A stretch of DNA of 64,000 bases from an uncultured Acidobacteriota bacterium (GCA_963724645.1 CAVRVJ010000003.1:279569-343568), one strand, 5' to 3'. Shown: positions 1,974 to 61,808, numbered from the stretch's first letter. Notes: generated from the letters alone by a model not told the origin. Made by a program: numbers and translations.

Positions 1974-3253
1974 CGACGAGTGACGCCGGGAGTCTTTTTG
2001 CGAAAAACGCAAAAGGACTCCCGGCATCATTTCTTGGCAGCGCCGCTCTGCTCGGCCTCCTCCTTCGCCTGCTCTTCTCATTCGGTTATTGGACCGGACA
2101 GCCGCTCACGCGCGATGAGCGGGAGTACTTGTCGCTCGCGCGCAGCCTGACGACGGGACAAGGATTCGTCTATGACGCCGCTTTGCTCGCCGACGACCCG
2201 GATCCATTCGGCCGCGCGCCAGGCTACCCGGTGTTCCTGGCGCTCGCAGGTGGAGGGGCGGCCGTCAGCACGAGCGTCCCGGCAACGGTCAAGATCGCGC
2301 AAGCGTGCGTCGGCGCCATCGGCGTCGTGCTGATTGGTGTCGTCGCCGGCCGGCTCGCGGGCCCTGCCGCCGCTGGGTCCGCCGCGCTCATTGCGGCCTG
2401 TTATCCACCGCTCGTCTGGATCGCCGCTTATGCGTACAGCGAGGCCATCGTCTGGCCCCTCGGCCTCGTCGTGGTCTGGCTGTTCGATCGAGCACTCAGC
2501 GCGCAGGGATCGGCTCATCGGGTCACCATGCTCCTCTGCGGCGGCCTCGCAGGCCTCACGATTCTCATCCGGCCCTCTACGATGTTCTTCCTGCTGTTGG
2601 CGACGGGCTGGCTGCTCTGGCGGCGGAGGTTCATGTTCGCGGTGGCTTTCGCAGTTGGTGCGGTCATCGTCGTGGCCCCGTGGAGCGCGAGAAACTATCG
2701 AGAGTACGGACGGTTCGTCGCCGTCGCGACCGAGGGCGGCGTGACCTTCTGGACCGGCAATCATCCGCTGGCGATCGGTGAGGGAGATTTCGCTGCGAAT
2801 CCGAATCTCAAGCGAGAGAGCCTCGCGTTGCGGGCGCGGCATCCGGCACTCAGCGAAGAGCAGATGGAGCCGGTCTACTATGACGAAGCGTTTGCCTGGA
2901 TCCGCGGGCATCCCTGGCGGTGGCTGACGCTGGAGGGTCGAAAGATTTTTTACCTCCTCATACCTGTCGGCCCCTCGTACCGTCTGCATTCGCTGCGGTA
3001 TTACGCCGCTTCCGTGATGTCGTACGCCTTGCTCCTGCCGGCTGCCCTGATTGGAGCCTGGCGGGTGGGTGCAGGCTGGCGGAGGGCGCCCGGATTGTGG
3101 CTGCTCGGGGCCTCCGCCGCCGTCGCGTCCCTCGTGTTCTTCCCGCAGGAGCGGTTCAGGATTCCGGTGATCGATCCCGTGCTGGTCGTCTGCGCCGGCG
3201 CGGTGTTCATGCCTGAAGAGGTGCGGCGCGACGCAGTCCGCCGGGTGCCATGA
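1970..3253 (+). CDS. GT-C membrane glycosyltransferase (ArnT/PMT-like)
   Basis: GTG overlaps the upstream stop; DE motif (TRDEREY) after TM1, RAPGYP, PWSARNY, QERFR; many TMs. Confidence 0.8.
   Translation: MTTSDAGSLFAKNAKGLPASFLGSAALLGLLLRLLFSFGYWTGQPLTRDEREYLSLARSLTTGQGFVYDAALLADDPDPFGRAPGYPVFLALAGGGAAVSTSVPATVKIAQACVGAIGVVLIGVVAGRLAGPAAAGSAALIAACYPPLVWIAAYAYSEAIVWPLGLVVVWLFDRALSAQGSAHRVTMLLCGGLAGLTILIRPSTMFFLLLATGWLLWRRRFMFAVAFAVGAVIVVAPWSARNYREYGRFVAVATEGGVTFWTGNHPLAIGEGDFAANPNLKRESLALRARHPALSEEQMEPVYYDEAFAWIRGHPWRWLTLEGRKIFYLLIPVGPSYRLHSLRYYAASVMSYALLLPAALIGAWRVGAGWRRAPGLWLLGASAAVASLVFFPQERFRIPVIDPVLVVCAGAVFMPEEVRRDAVRRVP
1981..2029. repeat. Palindromic REP-like element inside a CDS (22-bp arms)
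   Basis: TGACGCCGGGAGTCTTTTTGCG-AAAAA-CGCAAAAGGACTCCCGGCATCA. Confidence 0.8.
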
Positions 3254-8148: not shown

Positions 8149-10623
8149 GTGGTAATCACCTCCGTCCCCCTGCTCCTGCTTGTCGGCTATCTGCCTGGCG
8201 CGGTGATCTTTCGACTGCCGTTCGCCGGCCGCGAACGGCGTGCGGCGCTGCCGGCAGACGAGCGCGTGTTCTGGCACGTGATGCTGAGCGTGGCCTGGTC
8301 GCTGATCGTGGTGCTGCTGCTGGCGGCGCTCGAGAGCTACCGATTCGAGCGGCTTCTGCTTCTCAATGCCGGCCTTTGCGTCCTGCTGGTCGTAGGCAGC
8401 GGGGCGCGGCTGATCTATCGCGGCCAGGCCGTCCGGGTGGCGTTGACTGCCATGCTGCCGATCGGGTTGATCGCGCTTGGTGGCTGGCGATTCTTTCCGC
8501 CATCGGAATACATCATCGGCGGCAAGGACCCCGGCACCTACGTGAACGAGGGTATTCAGATTGCGCAGCGAGGTACGCTGACGATCCATGATCCGGTCAT
8601 TGCGGCCGTTCCGGAGTATGCGCGCGAACTGTTTTTTCCGTCGTATCACGTGGCCGAGTACTACAGCCTCCGGTTCATGGGGTTTTATCTGCGCGATGCG
8701 CACGGCACGAACGTGAACGGTCAGTTTCCTCAGTTGTTTCCAGCCTCCATCGCCATCGGCTACGGCCTCGGCGGATTAACCGGAGCCCGCCTCACAACCG
8801 GCGTCTGGGGCATCCTGGGACTGCTCGCGGTGTACTTCGCAGGCGCGCGGCTCGTCGGCCGCGCCGCGGCGTCCGCCGGCACGCTGCTCCTCGGCCTGAA
8901 CGTGACGGAGGTGTGGTTCGCCCGCTATCCCAACAGCGAACTGGTCACGCAGGCGCTGTTGTTCGCCGCCCTGCTGGCCTTCGCGCGCGCAGATCGGGAC
9001 GACGATCGGTTCTTCGCGCCCGTGTCGGGCACGCTCGTGGGCCTGATACTTTTCACGCGTATCGACGCGCTCCCGGTCATTGCCGGAATGCTCGCCGCCG
9101 GCGTCCTGGTCTGGCTGGTCGAGCGACGCACGATCCGCGCGGGATTTCTGGCGTCACTGATTCCATGGGGAGTGGCGGCAGCCTTTTATTACGCGGGGCC
9201 AATCCTTCCGTACACAAAACGGGCATTCCTGTATCTGGTCAACCTGCCGGCGCTCGGAGTCGCCGGTGCCGCCGCGGCGCTGGCTGCGGTCTTTGTCGCG
9301 CTCCTGCTGATGCGCAGCCATTTCGCCGAGCGCGCACGGCGTCTCGTGCCCGCGTCCATCACGATCCTGATCGTGCTGGCCGCTCTCTACGCCGCATTCC
9401 TTCGTCAACCGGGCGGCCGGCTGGCCGCGCACGACGCGTTCGCTTTGCGCAATTTCACGAACCTGTATCTCCTGTGGCCCGGCCTGGCGGCTGCCCTGAT
9501 TGGCTTTGCGGTCGTTGTGCGCCGTGACTTCTGGCGCGATCCGGCCTTCGTGTTGGTCTTCTCCGGCCTCTCGATGTTCTTCTTCTACAAGATCCAAATC
9601 GTGCCGATTGAATTCTGGGCGGCACGGCGATTCCTGCCGGTGATTCTGCCTGGTGCGCTGCTGTTCGCCGCGGCGGCCGGGCTCGGCCCTGCCGCCGGAC
9701 CACAGCGGCTGCGCCGCGCCGCGGGCATCGCGCTCGTGGCGCTCCTCGGATATCAGTACGTCGTGCGAGCGGAGCCGGTGATGCCGCACGTCGAGTACGC
9801 GGGCATAATCCCTGCGCTCGAACGTCTCGCCGCCAGATTCGATGACCGCGATCTGGTGCTCGTCGAAGCACGGAATGCAGGCGCGGACACCCACGTGCTG
9901 GCCGTGCCGCTCGCCTACATTTACGCGCGCAACGTGCTGGTCCTGAATTCGGCCCGTCCGGACAAGCTTCAGCTGCGCGCCTTCCTCGAGGACGGGTTGA
10001 AGAATTACAGGCACGTGTACTTCGTTGGGGGTGGGGGCACAGACCTGCTGTCGCGCCATATCAGCGCTCGCCCAATCGCCGACGAGAAGATCAAGGTCCC
10101 AGAGTTCGAATCGACCCAGGAACGATTACCGGCAACCGTCCGGCGGAAGGATTTCGACTACAGCGTGTACGAACTTGCGCTCGACGCGCCAGCCGCGGGG
10201 CCGTTCACCCTCGACGTCGGGGACCGCGACGACCTCCACGTCCTGAGGTTCCTCGCCAAGGAATCGAGCGAGGGCCGCACGTTCAGGTGGACCGGGCCGC
10301 AGTCGTTCGTGGCGATTCCGGGGATGAACGGGACCGAACGCGAGGTCGTGCTCGTCATGCACGACGGCGGACGTCCGGCGCAGGCCCCGAGGGCACACGT
10401 CGAAGTGCAGCTCAACGGCATGCCCCTCGGCGGGGTTGATGTTGGACCGGGCTTCCGTGAGTACCGCTTCGCGATTCCCCCGGGCGTTGCGGCCCAGGCC
10501 GCCAGTGTCGACGACCCGGCCCAGCTTACACTCGTATCGAGCGTGTGGATTCCCCAGCAACTGCTCGGCGGCACGGACGATCGCAAACTCGGCGTGATGC
10601 TCGACCGGGTGGACGTGCGATGA
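8149..10623 (+). CDS. Large GT-C-like membrane protein with C-terminal beta-sandwich domain
   Basis: Many TMs, GGKDPGTY loop, WFARYPNSE, RRFLP; C-terminal FRWTG...DDRKLGV domain. Confidence 0.72.
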   Translation: MVITSVPLLLLVGYLPGAVIFRLPFAGRERRAALPADERVFWHVMLSVAWSLIVVLLLAALESYRFERLLLLNAGLCVLLVVGSGARLIYRGQAVRVALTAMLPIGLIALGGWRFFPPSEYIIGGKDPGTYVNEGIQIAQRGTLTIHDPVIAAVPEYARELFFPSYHVAEYYSLRFMGFYLRDAHGTNVNGQFPQLFPASIAIGYGLGGLTGARLTTGVWGILGLLAVYFAGARLVGRAAASAGTLLLGLNVTEVWFARYPNSELVTQALLFAALLAFARADRDDDRFFAPVSGTLVGLILFTRIDALPVIAGMLAAGVLVWLVERRTIRAGFLASLIPWGVAAAFYYAGPILPYTKRAFLYLVNLPALGVAGAAAALAAVFVALLLMRSHFAERARRLVPASITILIVLAALYAAFLRQPGGRLAAHDAFALRNFTNLYLLWPGLAAALIGFAVVVRRDFWRDPAFVLVFSGLSMFFFYKIQIVPIEFWAARRFLPVILPGALLFAAAAGLGPAAGPQRLRRAAGIALVALLGYQYVVRAEPVMPHVEYAGIIPALERLAARFDDRDLVLVEARNAGADTHVLAVPLAYIYARNVLVLNSARPDKLQLRAFLEDGLKNYRHVYFVGGGGTDLLSRHISARPIADEKIKVPEFESTQERLPATVRRKDFDYSVYELALDAPAAGPFTLDVGDRDDLHVLRFLAKESSEGRTFRWTGPQSFVAIPGMNGTEREVVLVMHDGGRPAQAPRAHVEVQLNGMPLGGVDVGPGFREYRFAIPPGVAAQAASVDDPAQLTLVSSVWIPQQLLGGTDDRKLGVMLDRVDVR

Positions 10624-34691: not shown

Positions 34692-35144
34692 ATGCCGACC
34701 CTTGTGGAGCAAGTCACCAAGGACATCGCGGACGCCATGCGCCAGAAGAACCAGGCCACGCTGGCCCCGCTTCGCATGCTGAAAGCGGCGCTGATGAATC
34801 GTGAGGTTGAGAAACGCCGGCCGCTCGACGACGCCGAGTCGCTGCAGGTGGTTCATCAGCTCATGAAGCAGCGGCGCGACGCGATCGACCAGTTCCGCGC
34901 CGGCGGCCGTCAGGACCTGGCCGATCGCGAACAGGCCGAAGTGATATTCCTGGAACACTACCTGCCGCCCGCGGCCGATGAGGCGACCGTGCAGGCGGCG
35001 ATCGATGCGGCCATGACCGAGACGGGCGCCGCCGGTCCCAAGGACATGGGCAAGGTGATGAAGGCCGTCATGGCCAGGCTGGCCGGCGCCACCGTCGACG
35101 GGCGCCTGCTCAGCGACGCGGTCAAGAAGCGATTGTCAAAGTAA
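34692..35144 (+). CDS. yqeY: GatB/YqeY domain protein
   Basis: LRMLKAA, KQRRDAIDQF..GGRQDLA..E, YLP, KDMGKVM. Confidence 0.92.
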   Translation: MPTLVEQVTKDIADAMRQKNQATLAPLRMLKAALMNREVEKRRPLDDAESLQVVHQLMKQRRDAIDQFRAGGRQDLADREQAEVIFLEHYLPPAADEATVQAAIDAAMTETGAAGPKDMGKVMKAVMARLAGATVDGRLLSDAVKKRLSK

Positions 35145-35165
35145 GGCCGGCCCCGGCCTTCTTTC
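35143..35165 (+). terminator. Putative terminator after yqeY
   Basis: AAGGCCGG-CC-CCGGCCTT followed by CTTTC. Confidence 0.5.
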
Positions 35166-35170
35166 GCGCG

Positions 35171-35200
35171 GCAAACTTTTCAGGGCCGTCTTCCGTCTAA
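35171..35200 (+). promoter_or_regulatory. ECF sigma-type promoter
   Basis: GCAAAC-N17-CGTCTAA fits the AAC...CGTC ECF consensus. Confidence 0.65.
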
Positions 35201-35206
35201 CGTTTT

Positions 35207-35283
35207 TGAAAGGCGCGGAAGTGCCTCTCATCCATCCTCCTGGCAGGGGCCTCAGCCGCAGCGGTTGAGGCCCCTTCTTTTTT
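35207..35283 (+). ncRNA. Candidate small RNA (GNRA hairpin, anti-SD linker, intrinsic terminator)
   Basis: TGAAAGGCGC-GGAA-GTGCCTCTCA; TCCATCCTCCT; 14-bp GC stem plus TTCTTTTTT. Confidence 0.6.
35245..35283 (+). terminator. Rho-independent terminator
   Basis: AGGGGCCTCAGCCG-CAG-CGGTTGAGGCCCCT then a T-tract. Confidence 0.85.
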
Positions 35284-35303
35284 CCGGTACGCTGGCCGGG
35301 TCC

Positions 35304-36920
35304 TTGGCTTTGCCGGAACGCGCGTCATCCCAGAGTCTGGCCCGTTCGGCGGGACTGATCAGTCTCGCGACGTTCGCCAGCCGACTCCTCGGATTGGTAC
35401 GCGATCAGGTGCAGGCGGCCCTCTTCGGGACGACCCCCGCCGCCGATGCGTTTGCAATCGCGACGCGAATCCCGACACTTCTGCGCGATCTGTTCGCCGA
35501 AGGCGCGATGAGCGCGGCCTTCGTGCCCACATTCACCCGCTGCCTGACGCAGAATGGCCAGCCCGCGGCGTGGCGGCTGGGATCGCAGGTCGTCAACGCC
35601 CTGCTGCTCGTGACGGGCGCTATTGTGCTCCTGGGGATGATCTTCGCGAGCCCGCTCGCGACGTTCTACGCGGGTGACTTCTCGAAGATTCCCGGCAAGC
35701 TCGAGCTGACCATTCTGTTGACGCGCCTCAACATGCCCTTCCTGCTGCTCGTGGCCATCGCAGCGGCGTACATGGGGATGCTGAACGCGCTGCGACGGTT
35801 CTTTATTCCGGCGATGGCCCCGGCGATGTACAACGTCGTGTTCATCGTGTGTGCGATCGGGCTGTATCCGGTGTTCAAGCGCCTGGGACTCCACCCGGTG
35901 CTCTCGCTGACGGCAGGCATGCTGGCCGGCGGCCTCGCGCAAATCGTGACGCAGTGGCCGGCAGTGCACCGCGAAGGCTATCGCCATCAGTGGGTTCTCA
36001 ATTCGAGCGATCCGAATCTCCGGGAGGTGCTGGTCCTGATGGGGCCGGGTACGCTCGGCGGCGCCGCGGCGCAGATCAACGTTTTCGTCAACACGATGCT
36101 GGCCACGAGCGAGAACGGCGCCGCAGCCGCGCTGAATTTCGCGTTCCGGCTGATGTACCTGCCCGTTGGAATCTTCGCGGTCTCCGTGGCGACGGCGGCG
36201 ATTCCAGAGCTGGCCAGGCACGCCACACGACAAGCGCACGGCGATATGCGTTCGACCATCTCCTGGAGTCTGCGACTGATGCTCATGCTCAGTGTGCCGG
36301 CGACGGTCGGGCTCATGGTCCTGTCGAATCCGATTGTGGCGCTCATCTACGAGCGCGGCGAGTTTGACGCGAACTCTGAAGCCATGGTGGCGTCCGCTCT
36401 TGTCTTTTATGCCATCGGGATCGTGGGCTACTCCGTCGTCAAAATCGCGCTGCCAAGCTTCTATTCGCTGCAGGACGCCCGGACCCCGGTACTGGTGAGT
36501 CTGGTGACGATCACCGCCAACGTCGTCCTGAACGTCTCGTTCCATCGGGTGATGGGCTACCGCGGTCTCGCGCTCGGCACGGGAATCGCCGCGACGGTCA
36601 ACGCGGGCATTCTCCTGTTTCTGCTGTCACGGCGCCTCGGTGGTCTCGAGGGCAAGCGCGTGCTGAAGTCGCTGCTCAAGATCGCCCTCGCGTCGGCCAT
36701 CATGGGCGTCGTGGCCTATGCCAGCGAGGCGTGGTTGCACGATCGGTTTCCCGCGCGCGCGCTGTGGCCACATGCCATCCGCGTCTTCGGCGGCATCGGC
36801 GCCGGCGTCGCCACCCTCGCCCTCGCGGCGTGGGTCCTCCGGATCGAAGAATTCAGTCAGGCCGTGAAGCGCGTGCTCGCGCGGGTGCGGCCATCCAGGC
36901 CCTCCAGTTTCGAATTGTAA
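35304..36920 (+). CDS. murJ: Lipid II flippase MurJ (MviN)
   Basis: SRLLGLVRD, RIPTLLRDLFAEGAMSAAFVP, RLMYLPVG, ERGEF, DARTP; start TTG 35304 or 35310 after TTGAGG-N17-TACGCT. Confidence 0.93.
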   Translation: MALPERASSQSLARSAGLISLATFASRLLGLVRDQVQAALFGTTPAADAFAIATRIPTLLRDLFAEGAMSAAFVPTFTRCLTQNGQPAAWRLGSQVVNALLLVTGAIVLLGMIFASPLATFYAGDFSKIPGKLELTILLTRLNMPFLLLVAIAAAYMGMLNALRRFFIPAMAPAMYNVVFIVCAIGLYPVFKRLGLHPVLSLTAGMLAGGLAQIVTQWPAVHREGYRHQWVLNSSDPNLREVLVLMGPGTLGGAAAQINVFVNTMLATSENGAAAALNFAFRLMYLPVGIFAVSVATAAIPELARHATRQAHGDMRSTISWSLRLMLMLSVPATVGLMVLSNPIVALIYERGEFDANSEAMVASALVFYAIGIVGYSVVKIALPSFYSLQDARTPVLVSLVTITANVVLNVSFHRVMGYRGLALGTGIAATVNAGILLFLLSRRLGGLEGKRVLKSLLKIALASAIMGVVAYASEAWLHDRFPARALWPHAIRVFGGIGAGVATLALAAWVLRIEEFSQAVKRVLARVRPSRPSSFEL

Positions 36921-44859: not shown

Positions 44860-47800
44860 ATGGGGAACCACGGGACAACCACCCGCATGAAACTGTCCGG
44901 CCGAACGCTGGCTGGCGAACTCCCGAGTCCGACACCGCTCGTTGACACCCTTCAAAGCCAGTCGAGCGAGCTGCTCAATGCGCTGCTTGCGCTGCGGGAC
45001 GGCGATTTCTCCGTGCGCCTGCCACGCGACTGGACCGGCCTCGACGGCAAGATCGCCGACACGTTCAACGAGATCGCGGCCGCCAACGCGAAGATGGCCG
45101 ACGAGTTGAACGCGTCGGCAGCGTGGTCGGCAAGCAGGGCAAGACCCGTCAGCGCGTGAAGTTCGACCGTCTGACGGGCGCCTGGGGCGAGATGGAGACG
45201 TCGGTCAACACCCTCATCGACGACCTGCTCTGGCCGACGACCGAGATGACGCGCGCGCTGGCGGCCGTCGCGCAGGGCGACCTGCTGCAGACGGTCCGTC
45301 TGGACGTCGACGGCCGTCCGCTCGAAGGCGAGTTCCTGCGGTCGGCCACGATCGTCAACACGATGATCCGGCAGCTCGGCGTCTTCACGTCGGAAGTCAC
45401 GCGCGTGGCGCGCGAGGTCGGCACCGACGGCAAGCTCGGCGGCCAGGCGCAGGTGCAGGACGTCAGCGGCGTCTGGAAGGACCTGACCGACAGCGTCAAC
45501 CTGATGGCCAGCAACCTGACGGCGCAGGTCCGCAACATCGCCGAGGTGACCATCGCGGTCGCCAACGGCGACCTGTCGAAGAAGATCACGGTCGACGTCC
45601 GCGGCGAGATTCTGCAGCTCAAGGAAGCCATCAACACGATGGTCGATCAGCTGCGGTCGTTCGCGTCGGAAGTCACGCGCGTCGCGCGCGAAGTCGGCAC
45701 CGACGGCAAGCTCGGGCGGCCAGGCGATCGTGCCGGGCGTCGCCGGCACGTGGAAGGACCTCACCGACTCGGTCAACGCGATGTGCGGCAACCTGACCGG
45801 TCAGGTGCGCAACATCGCGCAGGTCACGATGGCGGTCGCGCGCGGCGACCTGTCGCGCAAGATCACGGTCGACGTCCGCGGCGAGATTCTCGAGCTGAAG
45901 GACACCATCAACACGATGGTGGACCAGCTGAACGCCTTCGCGTCGGAAGTCACGCGCGTGGCGCGCGAGGTCGGCACCGAAGGGCAAGCTCGGCGGCCAG
46001 GCGCAGGTGCCCGGCGTCGCCGGCACGTGGAAGGACCTGACCGACAACGTCAACTTCATGGCGAGCAACCTGACCGGCCAGGTGCGCAACATCGCCGAGG
46101 TCGCGACGGCCATCGCCAAGGGCGACCTCTCCAAGAAGATCACGGTCAACGTCAGCGGCGAGATCCTGCTGCTGAAGGAAACCATCAACACGATGGTGGA
46201 CCAGCTGAACGCGTTCGCGTCGGAGGTGACGCGCGTCGCGCGCGAAGTCGGCACCGAAGGCCGGCTGGGCGGCCAGGCCAACGTGCTCGGCGTCGCCGGC
46301 ACGTGGAAGGACCTGACCGACAGCGTCAACTCGATGGCCAACAACCTGACGTCGCAGGTGCGCAACATCGCGGAAGTGGCGACGGCCATCGCGAGCGGCG
46401 ACCTGTCGAAGAAGATCACCGTCGACGTCAGCGGCGAGATTCTGCAGCTGAAGCAGACGATGAACACGATGGTCGACCAGTTGAACGCGTTCGCCGGCGA
46501 GGTGACGCGCGTGGCGCGCGAGGTCGGCACCGAAGGCAAGCTGGGCGGACAGGCGCAGGTGCCGGGCGTCGCCGGCACGTGGAAGGACCTGACCGACAAC
46601 GTCAACCTGCTCGCGGCCAATCTGACGACGCAGGTCCGCAACATCGCGGAAGTCACGACGGCGGTCGCCCGCGGCGACCTGTCGCGCAAGATCACGGTCG
46701 ACGTCAAGGGCGAGATCCTCGAGCTGAAGAACACCATCAACACGATGGTCGACCAGCTCAACGCGTTCGCGGCGGAAGTCACGCGCGTCGCGCGCGAGGT
46801 CGGCACCGAAGGCAAGCTCGGCGGCCAGGCGGTCGTGCCCGGCGTGGCCGGCACATGGAAGGACCTGACCGACTCGGTCAACGCGATGGCCGGCAATCTG
46901 ACCGTCCAGCTGCGCGACGTGTCGAAGGTCGCGACCGCGATCGCGAAGGGCGACCTGAGCCAGAAGATCACGGTCGACGTCAGCGGCGAGATTCTGCAGA
47001 TCAAGGACACCATCAACACGATGGTGGACCAGCTCAACGCGTTCGCGGGCGAAGTCACGCGCGTCGCGCGCGAGGTGGGCACCGAGGGCCGGCTGGGCGG
47101 CCAGGCCAACGTGCTCGGCGTCGCCGGCACGTGGAAGGACCTGACCGACAGCGTCAACTCGATGGCCAACAACCTGACCGCGCAGGTCCGGAACATCGCG
47201 GACGTCGCGACCGCCATCGCGCGCGGCGACCTGTCGCGCAAGATCACGGTCGACGTCAAGGGCGAAATCCTCGAGCTGAAGAACACCATCAACACGATGG
47301 TCGACCAGCTCAACGCGTTCGCCGCCGAAGTGACGCGCGTCGCGCGCGAGGTCGGCACCGAAGGCAAGCTGGGCGGCCAGGCGCAGGTGCCAGGCGTCGC
47401 CGGCACGTGGAAGGACCTCACCGACAACGTCAACTTCATGGCGAGCAACCTGACCGCGCAGGTGCGCAACATCGCGGAAGTCGCGACGGCCATCGCCAAG
47501 GGCGACCTGTCCAAGAAGATCACCGTCGACGTCCGCGGCGAGATCCTGCTCCTGAAGGACACGCTGAACACGATGGTCGAGCAGCTGCGGTCGTTCGCGG
47601 CCGAAGTCACGCGCGTGGCGCGCGAAGTCGGCACCGAGGGCCGGCTCGGCGGTCAGGCCGTCGTGCCGGGCGTCGCCGGCACGTGGAAGGACCTCACCGA
47701 CAACGTCAACCTGCTCGCCGCCAACCTGACGACGCAGGTCCGCAACATCGCGGAAGTCACGACCGCGGTCGCGCGCGGCGACCTGTCGCGCAAGATCACC

Positions 47801-50800
47801 GTCGACGTCAAGGGCGAAATCCTCGAGCTGAAGAACACCATCAACACGATGGTCGACCAGCTCAACGCGTTCGCGGCCGAAGTCACCCGCGTCGCGCGCG
47901 AGGTCGGCACCGAAGGACGACTCGGCGGCCAGGCCGACGTGCCGGGCGTCGCCGGCACGTGGAAAGACCTCACCGACAACGTCAACGTCATGGCCGCCAA
48001 CCTCACCGAGCAGGTCCGCGGCATCGTCAAGGTCGTCACCGCCGTGGCCAACGGCGACCTGGAGCAGAGCCTGACGGTCAAGGCGAAGGGCGAAGTGGCG
48101 GCGCTGGCGTCGACAATCAACAACATGACGCAGACGCTGGCGACGTTTGCGGATCAGGTCACGACCGTCGCGCGCGAGGTCGGCGTCGAGGGACGGCTGG
48201 GCGGGCAGGCCAACGTGCCCGGCGCGGCCGGCACCTGGAAGGACCTCACCGGCAACGTCAACCTGCTGGCCGCGAACCTGACGACGCAGGTACGCGCGAT
48301 TGCCGAAGTGGCCACCGCGGTGACCAAGGGCGACCTGACCCGATCGATTCAGGTCGATGCCCGCGGCGAGGTCGCCGAGCTGAAGGACAACATCAACACG
48401 ATGATCGACAACCTTCGGCTTGACGACCGACCGCAATACCGAGCAGGACTGGCTCAAGACGAACCTGGCCCGCTTCACCGGCATGCTGCAGGGCCAGCGC
48501 GACCTCGTGACCGTCGGCCGCATGCTGCTCTCGGAGCTGGCGCCGCTGGTCGGCGCCCATCAGGGCGTCATCTATCAGATGGAGACCGATCCGATGCGGC
48601 TGCGGCGGCTCGCCGGATTTGCCGATCAGCGGGAGGGCCACCAGGAGTACGTCGGCCTCGGCGAAGGATTACTCGGGCAGTGCGCGACCGAGAAGGAGCG
48701 CCTCCTCATCACGGACGTGCCACCGAGCGCCGTGCCCATCGGCTCCGGCCCTCCTGAGAGCCATTCCCCGCAACATCGTCGTGCTGCCGGTGCTGTTCGA
48801 AGGGCAGGTCAAGGCCGTCATCGAGCTGGCGTCGCTCAGCTCGTTCACCGAGTCGCACCTGGTGTTCCTCGACCAGCTCACGGCCAGCATCGGCATCGTC
48901 CTGAACAGCATCGAAGCGACGATGCAGACCGAGGGGCTGCTGCAGCAATCGCAGCAGCTCGCCAGCGAGCTGCAGTCGCAGCAGAAGGAGCTGCAGCAGA
49001 CCAACGAGCAGCTCGCGCAGAAGGCGCAGGAGCTGGCCGAGCAGAACGCCGAAGTCGAGCGGAAGAACCAGGAAATCGAGCAGGCGCGCCGCGCGCTCGA
49101 AGAGAAGGCGGCCGAGCTGGCGCTGACCTCGAAGTACAAGTCCGAGTTCCTCGCGAACATGTCGCACGAGCTGCGGACGCCGCTCAACAGCATCCTGATC
49201 CTCGGCCAGCAGCTGGCGGACAACGCGGACACCAATCTCACGGCGAAGCAGGTGGAGTTCGCGCGCACGATTCACGGCGCCGGCACCGACCTGCTGAACC
49301 TGATCAGCGACATCCTCGACCTCTCGAAGATCGAGTCGGGCACGGTCACGGTCGACGCCGAAGACAGTCTACTTCAGCAATCTGCTGGACAGCGTCACCC
49401 GGACGTTCAAGCACGAGGCCGAAGGCCGCGGCCTGTCGTTCGAAGTGGTCAGCGATTCGCGACTGGGAAGGACGCTGCTCACCGACTCCAAGCGGCTGCA
49501 GCAGGTCCTCAAGAACCTGCTGTCGAACGCCTTCAAGTTCACCGCGCAGGGCGGCGTCCGGCTGACCGTCTCGCCGGTGGTCGGGGGCTGGAGCCCCGAC
49601 CATCCCGTCCTGAGTCAGGCGCCGACCGTCGTTTCATTCGAAGTCGCCGACACCGGCATCGGCATTCCGCCGGAGAAGCAGCGCATCATCTTCGAGGCGT
49701 TCCAGCAGGCCGATGCGAGCACGAGCCGCAAGTACGGCGGCACCGGCCTCGGTCTGGCGATCAGCCGCGAACTGGCGAATCTGCTCGGCGGGGAGATTCA
49801 TCTGCGCAGCACGCCGGGCATCGGCAGCACGTTCACGCTGTACCTGCCGCTGCGGTATTCCGGCCCGGTCACCGCCCTGAAGGGGAGGATCGATCACACG
49901 CCCGCCGCGGCGCAGGGACCGGTCCCCCCCGTGCGGCTTCAGGAACGGCCGGTCGAAATCGAAGACGACCGGAACTCCATCGAGCCTGGCGACACGACGC
50001 TGCTCGTCGTCGAGGACGACCCGCATTACGCGCGGATTCTCGTGGATCTCGCGCGCGACAAGGCCTTCAAGGTGCTGCTCGCCATGCGCGGCGACGAGGC
50101 GCTGACGCTTGCGCGGCAGTTCAAGCCGACCGCGGTGTCGCTGGACGTGTTCCTGCCGGACATGCTCGGCTGGACCGTCCTGAGCCATCTCAAGCAGGAT
50201 CCGCAGCTGCGGCACATTCCGGTGCAGATCGTCACGCTCGACGAGGATCGCAGCACGGCCTGGCGCGCGGCGCGTTTTCGTTCGTCACCGAAGCCCTCGA
50301 GCGCCGAAGGCCTGAACGTCGCGCTCGAACGCATCAGGGAATACGCGCGGCCGCGTCGCAAGCGCCTGCTCGTCGTCGAGGACAATCCCGCCGAACAGCT
50401 GAGCATCGGCGAGCTGCTCGGCCACGACGACATCGACATCATCACCGTTGGAACCGGCAGCGACGCGCTCACGGCCCTCGAGACCGGGCGGCTTCGACTG
50501 CGTCGTCCTCGACCTTCGGCTGCCCGACATGTCGGGCTTCGAGGTCCTCGAGCAGATGGCGAAGCAGGATGCTCTGCGCGAGCTGCCCGTCGTCGTCTTC
50601 ACCGGCCGGGAGCTGTCGCCCGACGAGGAATCCCGCTTGCACGACTACGCGCGCAGCGTCGTCGTCAAGGGCGTCGAATCGCCCGAGCGCCTGCTGGACG
50701 AGACGGCCCTGTTCCTGCATCGCGTGATCGAAGATCTTCCCCGGACCAAGCAGCAGATGCTCGAGCGGCTGCATCGATCGGACGAGGATCTGGTCGGCAA

Positions 50801-52775: not shown

Positions 52776-54359
52776 CTATTTCAGGTCCTTCTTCACGACC
52801 TTCCCCGTCGGTCCGACCGGCAGCGAGTCGCGAAACTCAATCGACCGCGGGTACTTGAACGCGGCCATCTGCTCTTTGCTCCACGCGATCAGCTCTTCCG
52901 CGTTCAGGGCGGCGCCCGATTTCAGCACGACGTACGCTTTGATCTCTTCGCCGAGCCGCACGTCGGGCACGCCAACCACGGCGGCGAGCGAGACGGCCGG
53001 ATGCGTGAGCAGCACTTCTTCGATCTCGCGCGGGTACACGTTCATCCCGCCCCGCAGAATGAGATCCTTCTTGCGATCGACGATCGAGAGAAACCCGTCC
53101 TCGTCGAGCACGCCGATGTCGCCGGTGTGCAGCCAGCCGCCCCGCAGGGCTTCAGCCGTCTCTGCCGGCCGGTTGTAGTAGCCCTTCATGACGTTGTGGC
53201 CGCGGATCACGACCTCCCCGCGCGCTCCGGCGGGGACCGGCTGGTCCCGATCATCGACAACGCGGATTTCGCATCCGGCCACGGGAATGCCAACCGTTCC
53301 GGGTTTTGACGGCAGGAAGACCTGGTTGAAGCAGGCGACCGGTGAGGTCTCCGACAGACCGTAGCCCTCGAGCAGCCGGACGTTGAACGTACGCTCGAAG
53401 TCCCGCAGCAGTTGAACCGGCATCGGCGCCCCACCGGAAACGCAGACTTTGAGTGATGCCGCCGAGCTGGCGACGTCCGTCTGCGATTCGCGCACATGTT
53501 GCAGCAGTACCCAGTACATCGTTGGGACGCCGACCCAGTACGACACGGCCTCCTCCACGAACGCGCGCAACACGGCAGCCGGGTCAAAACGCGGCAGCAG
53601 CACGAGCGTGAAACCGCCGGCGATGCCCGCGTTCATCTGCGCCAGTCTGGCCGGTGGAGTGAAAGAGCGGAAGCGTGATGAGCGAAACCATCCTTGCGTC
53701 GACGGCGAACCCGAGCAGCGGCAGGATCATGTCCCGCGATGCCATCGCGTTCATCGTCATGTTGACGTGCGTAAGCTCGGCGCCCTTGGGCTGACCGGTC
53801 GTGCCCGAGGTGTAGAGCATGACGGCTGTGTCATCCGGCGCAGTGGCACAGCTTTCGAAGATCGACGGCTGGCCGTCGATGACTTGTCCCAGGGTCAGCG
53901 ACCGATCGACCGGGCTGGCCGCCGTGGGATCGATCGTCATCACGATGAGATGCCGGCACCCCGGAACGCTGGCGCAGGCCTGTTCGCGCCATGCGGGCCA
54001 TTGGCAGTTCCGGCGTGCCTTCAAAGACAAGCAGAGCCTGGGCATCGCTATCCTGCAGGTGATACGCGATCTCGCGCGGTTTGAGCAGGACATTGAGCGG
54101 CACGACGACGCCGCCGAGTTTCAGGATCGCGTAGTACGCGATCGGAAACAAAGGAGTGTTCGGGCAGGCCAGAGCAATGTGATCGCCCGGACCGAGGCCG
54201 AGCGTGGCGAAGTCCTGAGGCCAGCTGGCTCGCCGCCGCATCGACCTGCGCATATGTCAGCCGGTGCCCGCCGCAGACGACGGCGGTCCTGCCCGGCGTG
54301 AGACGCGCCTGATGTTCAAGCAGGTTACAAAGATTCAGCGTGGTGGCGGTCGGAAACAT
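52776..54359 (-). CDS. Long-chain fatty acid-CoA ligase (frameshifted)
   Basis: YTSGTTGQPKG, EGYGLSE, HTGDIG, DRKKD, YPREIEE, PTGK. Confidence 0.9.
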
Positions 54360-55902: not shown

Positions 55903-56192
55903 TAGATAGAACGAGGCCGGCGGTCAGTCCGTGCCCCCGCCTCCGCGGCCCCCGCCGGCCCGCCGGTCCCCATCCTGCGATCGCCGCCTCTCGCGGAACG
56001 AGTAAGTCGATCGCGGGGTCAAGGCGCTCGATCCCGCCGACAGGTTCGGTCGATGTCATGAGTCCCTGGGAGACGCGCCGCTAACTGTCGATCAGATGCG
56101 CGTCCACGGCAAGCTGGAAACGCCGCTCGGGCCCGTTGCGGCAGGACGACGGAGCGCCAGTGCCGGCGCCCGACACCCGCTATACTGAAAGG

Positions 56193-58033
<1,841 letters not shown>

Positions 58034-58039
58034 CGCCCG

Positions 58040-59434
58040 TCAACGCGGAGGCCGGAAGTGCACCTGCCGGCCGTCATAGATGCAGACGACCCGCGGGTCG
58101 TTCCCGGCGGGAATCGATGCGTCCGCGTACGCGATCGTGCCGAAAATGTGCGTTCGGCCGAACGTATCCGAGAACACGACATTCAGGTACCCACTGATGC
58201 CGTCACGCAGCAACCGCTCGGTGCGTGAATCCCCAGGGACCAGAACGACGTCTCCGTGATAGCTGCGAACCCACGGATCGTCCCGAATTCCCCGGGTGAA
58301 AGCCGCGGTGAACGCAGTGACCTGATGCGATTGGATCGCCAACGCGACCTGATAGCCGGCGAGTCCGGCGACGTAGATCGTGAGCATTGCCGGAAGGAGG
58401 CGGCCCGATGGCAAACGCGCCCAGAGTCGAGCCGTGACATGCCCGGCAGCCAGGCATAGTCCAAACCCCGGCAGGTACAGGTACAGCTCGCTCCTCGCCA
58501 CGACCGGCAGCACCGGTGCGATGAACACGAGAAACCAGACGATGCCGTACAGGGCAAGACGCAGGAGCGAGAGATCCGCGGTCTTGTTCGTTCTGCTCCG
58601 CCCGCGAAGGGAAAACGCCGCGGGGCCTGCCACGAGCGCGATGAGCGCCGCCGGAGATGGGACCGCCCGTAACAGGTAGATCCGGGCGCCGCGGATCCAT
58701 CGCGACAGCGCGAACACCCACTTGTAGTGCTCGTCGGTCGACAGCGGCATAAGCGCGCCCGAAGCCATCCGCAAGAGCATCGGAGCGGCGCCGAGGGCCA
58801 GCAGCACGGCGACTCCGAGGATGCGCCGGCGCGTGAGAAGAGGGCCGGCAGGCGGCGTAAACAACATCAGGACCGGGAGAAGCGCGGCCGTCTCCTTCGA
58901 CAGAAACGCGGCTACATATGCCACGCCCGCCGCGACAAGCCAGCGACGCGCGCCTCCTTGCTCCCAGCGCAGCCAGCACAGAAGCGCCACGAACGAGCAC
59001 GCGCTCATGAGCAGCTCGGGACGCGCCGAAGGCCAGAAGATCGCAATGGTATGCGCCTTCGGGGTCAGGACGAACGCCAGTGCCGCCAGAAACGCCGCCC
59101 GCTCGCTCAATACGCCTCGGGCGAACTGATGCGCGGCGGCAATCACCAGAAGATGCACCGCCAGGTTGCTGATCCGGAACATGACCGGACTGAAGCCCCA
59201 GACGATGGCGTCGCCAAGGAGCGCGCTGTGCGCCAGCGGCCGGTAGAATCCGAAAGGATCCGGCGACGAAAAGATCTGCAGCACCGTTGGCCCCGTGAGC
59301 AGGCGGGCGATGTGGACGAAGTCGTCGCTCACCCAGCCACCCCCGAGGAAGGGCGCCGCACTGGCGCCGAGTACAAGCACCAGGGTTCGATACAGGACTT
59401 GGGGATGCGACAGCCGCGCCATCAATGGCCGCAT
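58040..59434 (-). CDS. GT-C-like membrane protein (TMTC/ArnT-like motifs)
   Basis: SDDF, FYRPL, SARPEL, LSKE, YLYLP. Confidence 0.72.
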   Translation of the reverse strand: MRPLMARLSHPQVLYRTLVLVLGASAAPFLGGGWVSDDFVHIARLLTGPTVLQIFSSPDPFGFYRPLAHSALLGDAIVWGFSPVMFRISNLAVHLLVIAAAHQFARGVLSERAAFLAALAFVLTPKAHTIAIFWPSARPELLMSACSFVALLCWLRWEQGGARRWLVAAGVAYVAAFLSKETAALLPVLMLFTPPAGPLLTRRRILGVAVLLALGAAPMLLRMASGALMPLSTDEHYKWVFALSRWIRGARIYLLRAVPSPAALIALVAGPAAFSLRGRSRTNKTADLSLLRLALYGIVWFLVFIAPVLPVVARSELYLYLPGFGLCLAAGHVTARLWARLPSGRLLPAMLTIYVAGLAGYQVALAIQSHQVTAFTAAFTRGIRDDPWVRSYHGDVVLVPGDSRTERLLRDGISGYLNVVFSDTFGRTHIFGTIAYADASIPAGNDPRVVCIYDGRQVHFRPPR

Positions 59435-59484
59435 GTTCGGACGGGCATTCTACTGTGCCGATCAGGTGGGGTACGCTGTTCCCC

Positions 59485-60625
59485 GTGCCGAATCGCCTGC
59501 GACCGTGGCTGTGGCCTCTGGTAACTGTCGCGGTCGCCGTCCTCGCCTACGCCCTGCTGCGCCACAAGCGAACCGAGCTCGTCGACTTCGCGGTACCCCG
59601 CACGGCTGCCATGCGCGTGATTGCCGCCGAGCCCCTGTATCGGCCGGAGGACGGTCACTATCAGTACAAGTATCTGCCGGCGTTCGCGTTCTTCATGATC
59701 CCGTTCACCTGGCCGCCCAAGGAGGCCGCGGAAGGTCTCTGGTTCGCGCTGACGGTCTACATGACCTGGGTGTTCGTGCGGCTGTCGCTTCGCGCGTTGC
59801 CGGACCGCCGGATGTCGGTCCAGCCCCTCGTCTGGCTGACCTTATTGCTCAACGGAAAGTTCTTGGTAAAGGAACTGGCGTTCGGCCAATTCAATCTCCC
59901 GCTCGCCCTGCTGTTCATCGGCGCGGTGATCGCCGCGCAGCGCAAGAGACCCATTCTCGCCGGGGTGTTCGTCGGGATCGGGGTCTTCGTGAAACCGTAC
60001 GCGCTCGTCCTGCTGCCCTGGCTGGCGTGGACGCAGGGCTGGCCCGCACTTGCCGCGTTCGGCGGCGTCACGACTCGCCGGTCTCGCGCTTCCGGCATCC
60101 GTCTACGGCTGGAGCGGTAACCTCGCCCTGCTTCATGAGTGGTACCGCACGGTCACCGAGACGACGGCACCGAACCTGCTCGTGGGCGAAAACATTTCTT
60201 TTGTCACCATGTGGTCGAAGTGGCTTCGACCCGGGGCAACGGCGTCGGCGCTCGCAGCGGCGACCGCGGCCGCCGCACTCGGGCTCGGCGCGCTCGTCCT
60301 GCGGAAGGGTCGCCTGGTCACCGAGCCGAACTACCTCGACTGCGCGTTCTTCTTCGTGCTGATCCCGCTGCTCTCGCCGCAAGGGTGGGATTACGTGCTG
60401 CTGCTGGCGCTGCCGGCCTACATGTGCCTTGTCGATCGCTGGTCCGACTCGACGCCCGCCTGGCGGGCCGCAGCGATGGCGGCGTTCATTCTGACGAGCT
60501 TCACGATCTTCGACGTGTTGCGGCGAGGCCTGTACCTGCATCTGCTCGCGCTGTCCGGCGAAAGCGTCGGCGCAATTCTGCTGGCCGTCTGTCTCGCCCG
60601 CCTCCGCTGGCGCGCTGTGGCGTGA
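59485..60625 (+). CDS. GT87/DUF2029 glycosyltransferase (frameshift near 60075)
   Basis: VDF, YKYLPAFA, GQFN, VKPY, NIS, LSPQGWDY. Confidence 0.83.
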
Positions 60626-60674
60626 TCGGCGGCCGCAGCCGCCACGTGGGCTGCGGCTATACTTTGTCGCTGAG

Positions 60675-61808
60675 ATGAAGGCGAAGTTGCGCCCATTCCT
60701 TCTGCCGCTGGTGCTCGCCGTTCTCGCAATTCTCGTCTACAACAAGCGCGTCCAGCACGAGATGGTCGACTTCACCATCTGGCGGCAGGCGGCGGTGCGC
60801 GGGCTTCAGGCGCAACCGCTCTATCGCCCCGAAGACGGCCACTACCAGTTCAAGTACTTTCCGGTATTCGCCCTCATGATGGCGCCCTTCGCGGTCCTGG
60901 ATCAGGACACGGCCAAGATGATCTGGTTTGCGGTGTCGTTCGGGTTGCTCGCGGCCTTTCTGCGCTGGTCAATTGCGGCGCTGCCCGAACGCCGGCAGTC
61001 GGAGCGCGCGCTGCTCTGGCTTGCTATCGTGCTCATGGCGAAGTTCTATGCGCATGAGCTGCTGCTCGGTCAGACCAACCTGTTGCTGGGCGCCCTCCTC
61101 GTCGCGGGCCTCCTGGCCATTCAGATCGATCAACCCGTGATGGCCGGCGGCCTCATCGGCGCGGCGGCATTCGTGAAGCCTTACGCGCTCCTCATTCTTC
61201 CATGGCTGGTCGTCATGCAGGGTGTGGCGGCTGGCGTCATGGCGGCAGGCATCGTTGTGACGGGCCTGTTGCTGCCGGCTGCCGTGTACGGCTGGATCGG
61301 TAACCGCGATCTGCTGCTCGGGTGGTACCGCACGGTGTCGGACACGACGGAGCCGAACCTGCTCGGGAACGACAACGTCTCGCTGGCCGCGATGTGGGCC
61401 AAGTGGATCGGACCGGGACCGTCAGCGTCGGTCCTGGCGGCCCTTTCCGCGGCTGTGCTGGTCGGATTGGTCGTGATGATCTGCCGTAGACGCCGCGGCA
61501 TCGCCACGCCGGAGTACCTCGAGTTCGCGCTGCTGATGCTGCTCATCCCGCTCCTGTCTCCCCAGGGCTGGGACTACGTCCTTCTTCTCGCCACACCAGC
61601 CGTCGTCTGCCTGCTCGATCGCTGGCGCGAGCTGACCAGAGCCTGGCAAGCCGCGCTCGGCCTGGCCCTCGTGCTCATGTGCCTGACCATGTTCGACGTC
61701 ATGGGCCGGGATTTGTACGGCCGGTTCATGGCGCTCTCCGTTGTCACCGTGAGCGCCCTTGGTGTCGCCGCCGGTTTGGCTCACCTCCGCTGGCGGAAAC
61801 TGGCGTAG
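60675..61808 (+). CDS. GT87/DUF2029 glycosyltransferase
   Basis: MVDF, FKYFP, GQTN, VKPY, NVS, LSPQGWDY. Confidence 0.85.
   Translation: MKAKLRPFLLPLVLAVLAILVYNKRVQHEMVDFTIWRQAAVRGLQAQPLYRPEDGHYQFKYFPVFALMMAPFAVLDQDTAKMIWFAVSFGLLAAFLRWSIAALPERRQSERALLWLAIVLMAKFYAHELLLGQTNLLLGALLVAGLLAIQIDQPVMAGGLIGAAAFVKPYALLILPWLVVMQGVAAGVMAAGIVVTGLLLPAAVYGWIGNRDLLLGWYRTVSDTTEPNLLGNDNVSLAAMWAKWIGPGPSASVLAALSAAVLVGLVVMICRRRRGIATPEYLEFALLMLLIPLLSPQGWDYVLLLATPAVVCLLDRWRELTRAWQAALGLALVLMCLTMFDVMGRDLYGRFMALSVVTVSALGVAAGLAHLRWRKLA

Follow-up and report, generated by a model that had tools for sequence, protein, structure and literature searches.

A 64,000-nucleotide (nt) stretch of DNA from an uncultured Acidobacteriota bacterium (GCA_963724645.1 CAVRVJ010000003.1:279569-343568), referred to below as the window, carries in the spacer between yqeY and murJ a predicted small RNA (sRNA) gene of ~77 nt whose conservation extends across Vicinamibacterales (Acidobacteriota). 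That this feature is real and beyond chance is confirmed by its recurrence, with covariation in its helices, at 55 of the 80 related loci. Our preferred interpretation, which we regard as fairly probable, is that it encodes a trans-acting anti-Shine–Dalgarno sRNA, transcribed from a promoter of the extracytoplasmic function (ECF) type and belonging to a new family. A first-pass annotation of the window had proposed a unit of this kind, and sequence comparison, as far as it goes, supports that proposal.

All parts of the unit lie on the plus strand. The promoter named in that annotation, GCAAAC and CGTCTAA with 17 nt between them, is present at 35171-35176 and 35194-35200 (35194..35200 being the ECF-type -10 block), and the -35 hexamer runs directly into a T-tract (GCAAACTTT, 35171..35179). 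Downstream lies the predicted primary transcript of ~77 nt (35207..35283), whose 5' end is placed by promoter geometry alone. It opens with a hairpin (helix 1, 35207..35230), which has the expected GGAA loop in the window and appears in both the minimum free energy (MFE) and centroid folds. This is followed by the stretch UCCAUCCUCCU (35231-35241), containing the anti-Shine–Dalgarno motif CCUCC and open in the centroid fold, as had been claimed, and the unit closes with an intrinsic terminator (35245..35283) composed of helix 2 (35245-35275) and the U-tract TCTTTTTT (35276-35283). A conserved 16-mer pyrimidine core, CTCTCATCCATCCTCC (35225..35240), spans the end of helix 1 and the open stretch and is identical in 30 of 56 members. 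When folded, the 80-nt unit forms just two hairpins with the pyrimidine stretch open (-41.9 kcal/mol, z = -4.99, 0/200 shuffles as good). The terminator was called by a terminator scan (a 14-pair stem with 10 G-C pairs, closed by a 3-nt loop) and its fold of -29.2 kcal/mol (z = -5.8) was equalled by none of 200 shuffles, in keeping with its earlier description as strong.

Recurrence and covariation of the element

The comparison covered 81 sources, namely the window and 80 related murJ loci (given below as L numbers) obtained by searching species-representative genomes with the MurJ of the window; with flanks of up to 10 kb these amount to 1.57 Mb, searched on both strands. MurJ identity in this set is 50-67% and the relatives carrying the 80 loci are all Vicinamibacterales or Vicinamibacteria metagenome-assembled genomes (MAGs) of the Acidobacteriota; the window itself has a G+C content of 66%. 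MAGs labelled 'Bifidobacteriaceae' (L053 and L077) and 'Cyanobacteriota' (L061) also hold Vicinamibacterales-like yqeY-murJ loci, with the sRNA present in L053 and L061, and the labels or binning of the MAGs behind L053, L061 and L077 look wrong.

A blastn-short search with the spacer found an 18-nt stretch, GCCTCTCATCCATCCTCC, at 100% identity in loci of ~52-58% MurJ identity. We then used a covariance model, built from 14 close copies (R1, alignment A2) and rebuilt from 40 matches (R2, alignment A4), and with R2 obtained 63 matches at E ≤ 5 over the window and the 80 loci. Fifty-six of these lie on the plus strand of the yqeY-murJ spacer, in the window (35201-35284, 90.5 bits, E = 4e-18) and in 55 of the 80 loci, at E-values from 1e-18 to 0.055, whereas the others comprise six minus-strand matches over the same elements and one at L056:16510 (E = 1). 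R2 found no second copy in the window or flanks (1.57 Mb), the sRNA being single copy per locus. In all 56 cases it lies upstream of murJ on the same strand, with 17 to 298 nt separating the RNA end and the murJ match. The gene yqeY is found directly upstream of murJ in 67 of the 80 loci, and the sRNA occurs in 56/68 sources with yqeY upstream compared with 0/13 without it. Twelve yqeY-adjacent loci gave no R2 match, nine of them with spacers of 68 nt or less. Among the sources scored as lacking the sRNA, L050 has a look-alike by eye that R2 did not report and L074, in which yqeY is not beside murJ, offers just 52 nt of upstream sequence. The yqeY-murJ spacer of L019, which has no sRNA, contains at ~9850-9960 three tandem ~36-nt hairpin-forming units (GGTCTACCGGAACGGCTTAACGCCGTTCC...). 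We take the adjacency to murJ as conserved synteny, not as functional evidence, and the same applies to the other envelope genes near the sRNA in the window, a large glycosyltransferase cluster and a rhomboid protease gene.

Both helices covary, as the first-pass annotation had led us to look for. In alignment A5 (56 sequences, guided by R2), 95.4% of cells fall in standard pairs against 77.4% in shuffles, and double changes affecting both sides were found at 20/20 modelled pairs (7/7 in helix 1, which is paired in 97.2% of cells across the 56 members, and 13/13 in the terminator). The covariation score was 0.453 compared with 0.149 ± 0.010 for shuffled alignments, none of 500 reaching it, and partners slid out of register scored 0.03-0.09. 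RNAalifold applied to A5 returned the same two helices, with 17 pairs, every one having compensatory changes. When 30 diverse members were aligned with MAFFT without model guidance, the variable terminators fell out of register and RNAalifold gave three pairs, all spurious; the model-guided alignment was used instead. The two helices differ in how their variation is distributed: within the 40 closest members the terminator covaries at 13/13 pairs but helix 1 shows a double change at only 1/7, its sequence being largely fixed in close members and compensatory change appearing in distant ones such as L014, L021, L028, L026, L031 and L066.

Promoter and relation to yqeY and murJ

Aligning the 56 upstream regions on GTCNA revealed two nearly invariant blocks. 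The -10 block reads C in 55, G in 56, T in 56, C in 56, T in 52 and A in 56 of the 56 members, then A in 44 or T in 10, and the -35 block reads A in 53, A in 56 and C in 46 before continuing into T-rich positions. AAC and CGTC are separated by 17 nt in 43/56 members, by 16 nt in 10 and by 13 nt in one, and in two members the spacer was not located; the sequence between the blocks is unconserved. Helix 1 starts 6-7 nt past GTCTA in 43/56 members and the intervening columns are variable, so that transcription is most naturally read as starting at the base of the hairpin. The two-block pattern is highly specific to this position, as 45 of its 46 matches in the 1.57 Mb lie upstream of the sRNA, with ~0.6 chance matches expected by a composition estimate. 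The sole other match (L032, 15812..15785, minus strand) is followed 6 nt on by an ATG that opens an 835-amino-acid permease of the MacB_PCD/FtsX type, and could be a regulon member or chance, being within the chance expectation.

These features closely match the ECF class. ECF promoters share AAC at -35, while CGT or CGTC at -10 marks sigmaX/W/M/V promoters, and the -35-proximal T-tract (tGAAACnTTTt) belongs to the consensus of several ECF groups (PMC5758882); within the ECF -35 element, a G region, the AAC motif and a T-rich segment have been distinguished (PMC1540707). In Bacillus subtilis, promoters of sigmaV/W/M/X (ECF30, ECF01 and relatives) carry GCAAAC or tGAAAC with a T-tract at -35 and CGTC at -10, and the sigV promoter itself has GCAAAC and CGTC (PMC5758882). 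The sRNA promoter has the same combination of AAC with a T-tract, a CGT(C) -10 and a spacer of ~16-17 nt that is expected of an ECF (group IV) promoter, so the assignment made in the first-pass annotation agrees with the published description. In the window it reads GCAAAC-TTTT ... CGTC-TAA, a likeness that concerns promoter class only, and the passages of PMC5758882 consulted report no sRNA under the B. subtilis promoters.

The upstream gene, yqeY (34692..35144, plus strand), encodes a GatB/YqeY-domain protein of 150 amino acids (Pfam PF09424 YqeY, E = 1.4e-43). The first-pass annotation had placed a terminator between this gene and the sRNA, insulating the two, but the hairpin in question (35145-35158, followed by UUCUUUC) folds at only -13.4 kcal/mol (z = -0.65), was matched by 51/200 shuffles and was not called by the scan, and this part of the proposal is not upheld. 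From the yqeY stop to the -35 block there are ~15 nt or less in 32/56 members, which leaves no space for a separate yqeY terminator, so that in most relatives yqeY transcripts must cross the element and end at the sRNA terminator. Judging from this arrangement, the yqeY transcripts of the window probably end there as well, and a form of the RNA processed from the yqeY 3'-untranslated region (UTR) may possibly exist besides the primary form.

The same short gap, together with the absence of the element from all 13 sources without yqeY beside murJ, might indicate that the element is nothing other than a yqeY 3'-UTR with its terminator, lacking a promoter of its own, and that the upstream blocks are an RNA motif or processing site. 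We consider this very unlikely, since a spacer of fixed length but free, non-covarying sequence characterizes promoters, not structured RNA, and the blocks agree at every letter with a known promoter class (PMC5758882). In addition, L026, L031 and L066 have ~435-500 nt inserted between yqeY and the sRNA and in these loci the blocks remain beside the RNA, moving with it. A processed 3'-UTR product would in any case be compatible with a promoter-driven sRNA, as a second source of the RNA, and the position of the promoter ~15 nt from the yqeY stop in most relatives gives the locus the layout of a 3'-end-embedded sRNA with its own promoter. The insertions in L026, L031 and L066 seemingly contain a small minus-strand open reading frame (ORF); in these loci helix 1 also differs (CCGA...UCGG) and palindromes (TAGACC...GGTCTA) follow the terminator.

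Downstream, murJ (35304..36920, plus strand; Pfam PF03023 MurJ, E = 4e-112) encodes the lipid II flippase and has two candidate TTG start codons, at 35304 and 35310. Its predicted promoter, TTGAGG (35265-35270) and TACGCT (35288-35293) with a 17-nt spacer, is present as the first-pass annotation described, but only half of it holds up in comparison: the -10 is conserved, whereas the -35 is an arm of the sRNA terminator and is unconserved where the terminator differs. The sigma-70-like -10 hexamer (35288..35293) is preceded in the window by G-G and is separate from the sRNA. Its pattern TA[CA][CG]CT is found just upstream of murJ in 51/81 sources (background frequency 0.17 per kb), as part of an extended -10-like element TG(T)G(G/C)TAC(G/C)CT in which TGTGG or TGTGC usually precedes the hexamer (e.g. 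in L049, L060 and L068), and it occurs with or without the sRNA in the locus. Since a start codon (ATG or GTG) is often located 10-16 nt past this -10, the sequences suggest that murJ is leaderless or has a very short leader in Vicinamibacterales.

In principle, the element could instead be a cis-acting leader through which the ECF promoter raises murJ expression by read-through of a conditional terminator, with the short RNA as a by-product. Its place upstream of murJ on the same strand in 56/56 cases would agree with this, as would the 4 nt that separate the terminator end from the murJ -10 in the window. However, the terminator is strong (14 base pairs and a U-tract) and is kept by covariation, RNAalifold on A5 showed no conserved alternative antiterminator pairing, the RNA end may lie anywhere from 17 to 298 nt from murJ, and murJ keeps its own -10 also in loci without the element. 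A leader would moreover leave the invariant CCUCC stretch unexplained. We therefore find this explanation quite unlikely; murJ has its own sigma-70-like -10 and is probably not controlled by the sRNA element.

The pyrimidine core, its proposed action and related RNAs

The pyrimidine stretch between the two helices, (CUCUCAU)CCAUCCUCC, is nearly invariant, in line with the conservation that the first-pass annotation would predict for a seed. Within it, CATCCTCC is present in 49/56 members and unpaired in the folds, a second core form, CTCTCACCATCCTCC, occurs in 8/56, and the core also tolerates a 1-nt indel (TCATCCATCC compared with TCACCATCC). L018, L024 and L051 have CACCCTTCC or CTTCC in its place, and these loci carry a divergent form of the RNA with the seed CACCCUUCCC and the helix-1 loop CCUAGUCA. 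An unpaired and conserved CCUCC-type motif is the hallmark of the anti-Shine–Dalgarno class of sRNA.

Comparison thus shows the locus to be a self-contained four-part unit, consisting of an ECF-type (group IV) promoter (cAAAC with a T-tract, 16-17 nt, CGTCTAA), a 5' hairpin at or beside the predicted start site, an unpaired pyrimidine stretch and a Rho-independent terminator. We propose that an ECF sigma factor, freed by its anti-sigma factor under some stress, would transcribe the sRNA, and that the exposed CCUCC stretch would then pair with ribosome-binding sites of the GGAGG type and block translation initiation of a set of mRNAs, in a manner resembling that of alpha-proteobacterial anti-Shine–Dalgarno sRNAs. 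The sRNA might in this way act as the repressing non-coding arm of a sigma regulon, the part played by MicA, RybB and MicL under sigmaE, and it is by this analogy that envelope stress is suggested as the signal.

Several observations weigh against this proposal. No ECF sigma gene was found among the 57 window ORFs scanned (none with sigma-70_r2 or sigma-70_r4), and a pattern search of the flanks revealed no autoregulated sigma gene with the same promoter. On the target side, the best RNAduplex interaction in the window, both strands considered, was -31 kcal/mol, within the -27.8 to -34.2 obtained with 10 shuffled seeds, and the 62 9-mers complementary to the core in the window and flanks share no recurrent gene context and are no more numerous than expected, 20 shuffled motifs giving between 4 and 132. 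Shine–Dalgarno use also looks weak in a rough scan of the window, and no GGAGG precedes yqeY or murJ; with weak Shine–Dalgarno use an anti-Shine–Dalgarno RNA may have few clients. The pair counts given above come from an alignment fitted to the covariance model and so lean towards the structure. Finally, the 16 conserved nt, including one arm of helix 1, exceed what a typical seed needs, which could point to a protein partner or to a single highly conserved RNA partner. Exact and 3-mismatch searches of the window for the seed complement found only the sRNA element itself, and a rough list of GGAG, GAGG and GGAGG sites before window start codons contained mostly internal sites and no candidate target. 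As these target searches spanned less than 2 Mb from 81 genomes, the lack of targets says little.

The excess of conservation is one ground for regarding the RNA as a decoy, in which the 16-nt pyrimidine stretch would be bound by a protein or would act as a look-alike of the 16S rRNA 3'-tail, with no defined set of mRNAs. Conservation over CUCUCAUCCAUCCUCC (identical in 30/56) and both helix-1 arms is greater than the constraint on a short seed, helix 1 hardly changes among the closest members, and no mRNA target emerged from the window and flanks. The variant UCACCAUCCUCCUU presumably resembles the 16S 3' end. Nevertheless, in its simple layout (hairpin, single-stranded CCUCC, terminator) the RNA matches base-pairing anti-Shine–Dalgarno sRNAs, and the failure to find targets in so small a sample counts for little, such that we judge a decoy to be unlikely. 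A broader version of the anti-Shine–Dalgarno idea is that a stress-induced look-alike of the 16S anti-Shine–Dalgarno tail might, once an ECF sigma factor becomes active, mask strong GGAGG sites genome-wide and thereby shift translation to leaderless or Shine–Dalgarno-poor mRNAs. Such global reprogramming is rather improbable in our view and is kept in sight because of the over-conserved 16-nt core, the lack of a specific target and the flanking genes without Shine–Dalgarno sequences.

Read on the opposite strand, the seed gives a perfect Shine–Dalgarno sequence followed by ATG (AGGAGG-AUGG-AUG), which in the window would open a 31-amino-acid ORF (35231..35136, minus strand). Yet a small minus-strand protein is so improbable that we give it hardly any weight, as the corresponding ORFs of the 56 members differ in frame and length (11-64 amino acids) and encode unrelated peptides, CACCATCC variants meet early stops in both frames, and a 1-nt indel falls within the conserved core. 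No conserved ORF covers the core on either strand in the 56 members, and a coding reading was rejected, core ORFs varying in frame, start and peptide on the minus strand and likewise on the plus strand (7-64 amino acids). With a promoter, covarying structure, a terminator and no coding potential, the element has the make-up of a generic Rho-independent-terminated sRNA gene.

A match to a described family would have removed the novelty suggested in the first-pass annotation, but a search of the whole window against Rfam 15 gave no match at the gathering score. With the threshold relaxed to E ≤ 10, the element returned chance-level candidates only (miRNA hairpins on the terminator, ArcZ at 16 bits and BjrC68 at 15.6 bits), which we rejected. 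Among eight homologous loci (seven with the element) searched at E ≤ 0.5, the only result was a sub-threshold match of the L024 variant (3072-3145) to suhB/MmgR (RF00519), at 27.1 bits against a gathering score of 41 and aligned over the pyrimidine stretch and terminator. The window element itself gave no match to RF00519 at E up to 10 and does not belong to that family.

In architecture, MmgR/SuhB (alpha-r8, RF00519) is nonetheless the nearest relative, being a 77-nt trans-acting anti-Shine–Dalgarno sRNA with a terminator, although it is alpha-proteobacterial, has RpoD/RpoN promoters under NtrC/AniA control and is predicted to form three stem-loops with the motif in a loop (PMC7143759). The likeness is one of resemblance, not membership. 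In rhizobia, NfeR1/alpha-r14 ('cuckoo') and AbcR1/2 likewise use an ultraconserved unpaired CCUCC anti-Shine–Dalgarno motif to occlude ribosome-binding sites (PMC10746234). As in the sRNA described here, the stems of alpha-r14 RNAs vary and the motif is fixed, but alpha-r14 has three hairpins, each with CCUCCUCCC in the loop, whereas the present RNA has two helices and one CAUCCUCC in the linker, and NfeR1 is under LsrB/NtrC and not an ECF sigma factor (PMC10746234). Given this different hairpin layout and the lack of an Rfam match, the element is not a member of the alpha-r14/NfeR1 family.

In regulation, the closest parallels are the sigmaE-dependent sRNAs of enterobacteria (MicA, RybB and MicL) and of Fusobacterium (FoxI/FoxJ), which are terminator-ended, have an ECF/sigmaE-type promoter and form the repressing arm of a regulon (PMC1804206, PMC4102768, PMC11005410). 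MicL, like the element here, lies at the 3' end of a protein gene and has its own promoter (PMC4102768). No sequence or Rfam relation links the element to MicA, RybB or MicL, either at the gathering score over the window or at E ≤ 10 with the element, and it comes from another phylum. The seeds of enterobacterial sigmaE sRNAs sit at the 5' end, whereas the presumed seed here lies between the hairpins and is an anti-Shine–Dalgarno CCUCC. The sRNA is a new family, but the kind of mechanism is already known.

In the literature searched, with most subscription journals outside its coverage, we found no described sRNA with an ECF link in Acidobacteria and none for Vicinamibacter, and CCUCC anti-Shine–Dalgarno sRNAs only in other phyla. 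Conserved across an order of soil bacteria, the element is a good candidate for a first regulatory sRNA in the little-studied Acidobacteria. If transcribed as predicted, it would give an abundant soil order its first sRNA family, for which a covariance model is at hand, and a defined ECF promoter motif by which the cognate sigma factor and its regulon could be located in complete genomes. It would also add one more independent example of an alternative sigma factor whose regulon has a repressing, non-coding arm and support the recurrence of this circuit across phyla.

Other features of the window

Upstream of the sRNA, the window contains a long biosynthesis cluster of the polysaccharide or lipopolysaccharide type (127-32712, plus strand). 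Among its products are GT2, GT4 and GT9 glycosyltransferases, a DegT aminotransferase, epimerases/dehydratases and methyltransferases, together with three radical-SAM proteins (two with SPASM), a Wzx-like flippase and PMT_2-type proteins.

Several genes elsewhere in the window are apparently split into ORFs that adjoin or overlap. They include TypA/BipA (56136-58033, plus strand), with the GTP_EFTU part at 56136-57518 and the BipA_C part at 57515-58033, an AMP-binding enzyme (52776-54093, minus strand; ORFs 53584-54093 and 52776-53636) and GT87 proteins (59425-61808, plus strand), and the splits may be due to frameshifts, assembly errors or crude ORF calls. In addition, the region 45123-48757 (plus strand) encodes a 916-amino-acid protein with nine HAMP stretches (a poly-HAMP array), preceded by a HAMP protein of 305 amino acids, while farther downstream there are response-regulator and histidine-kinase genes.

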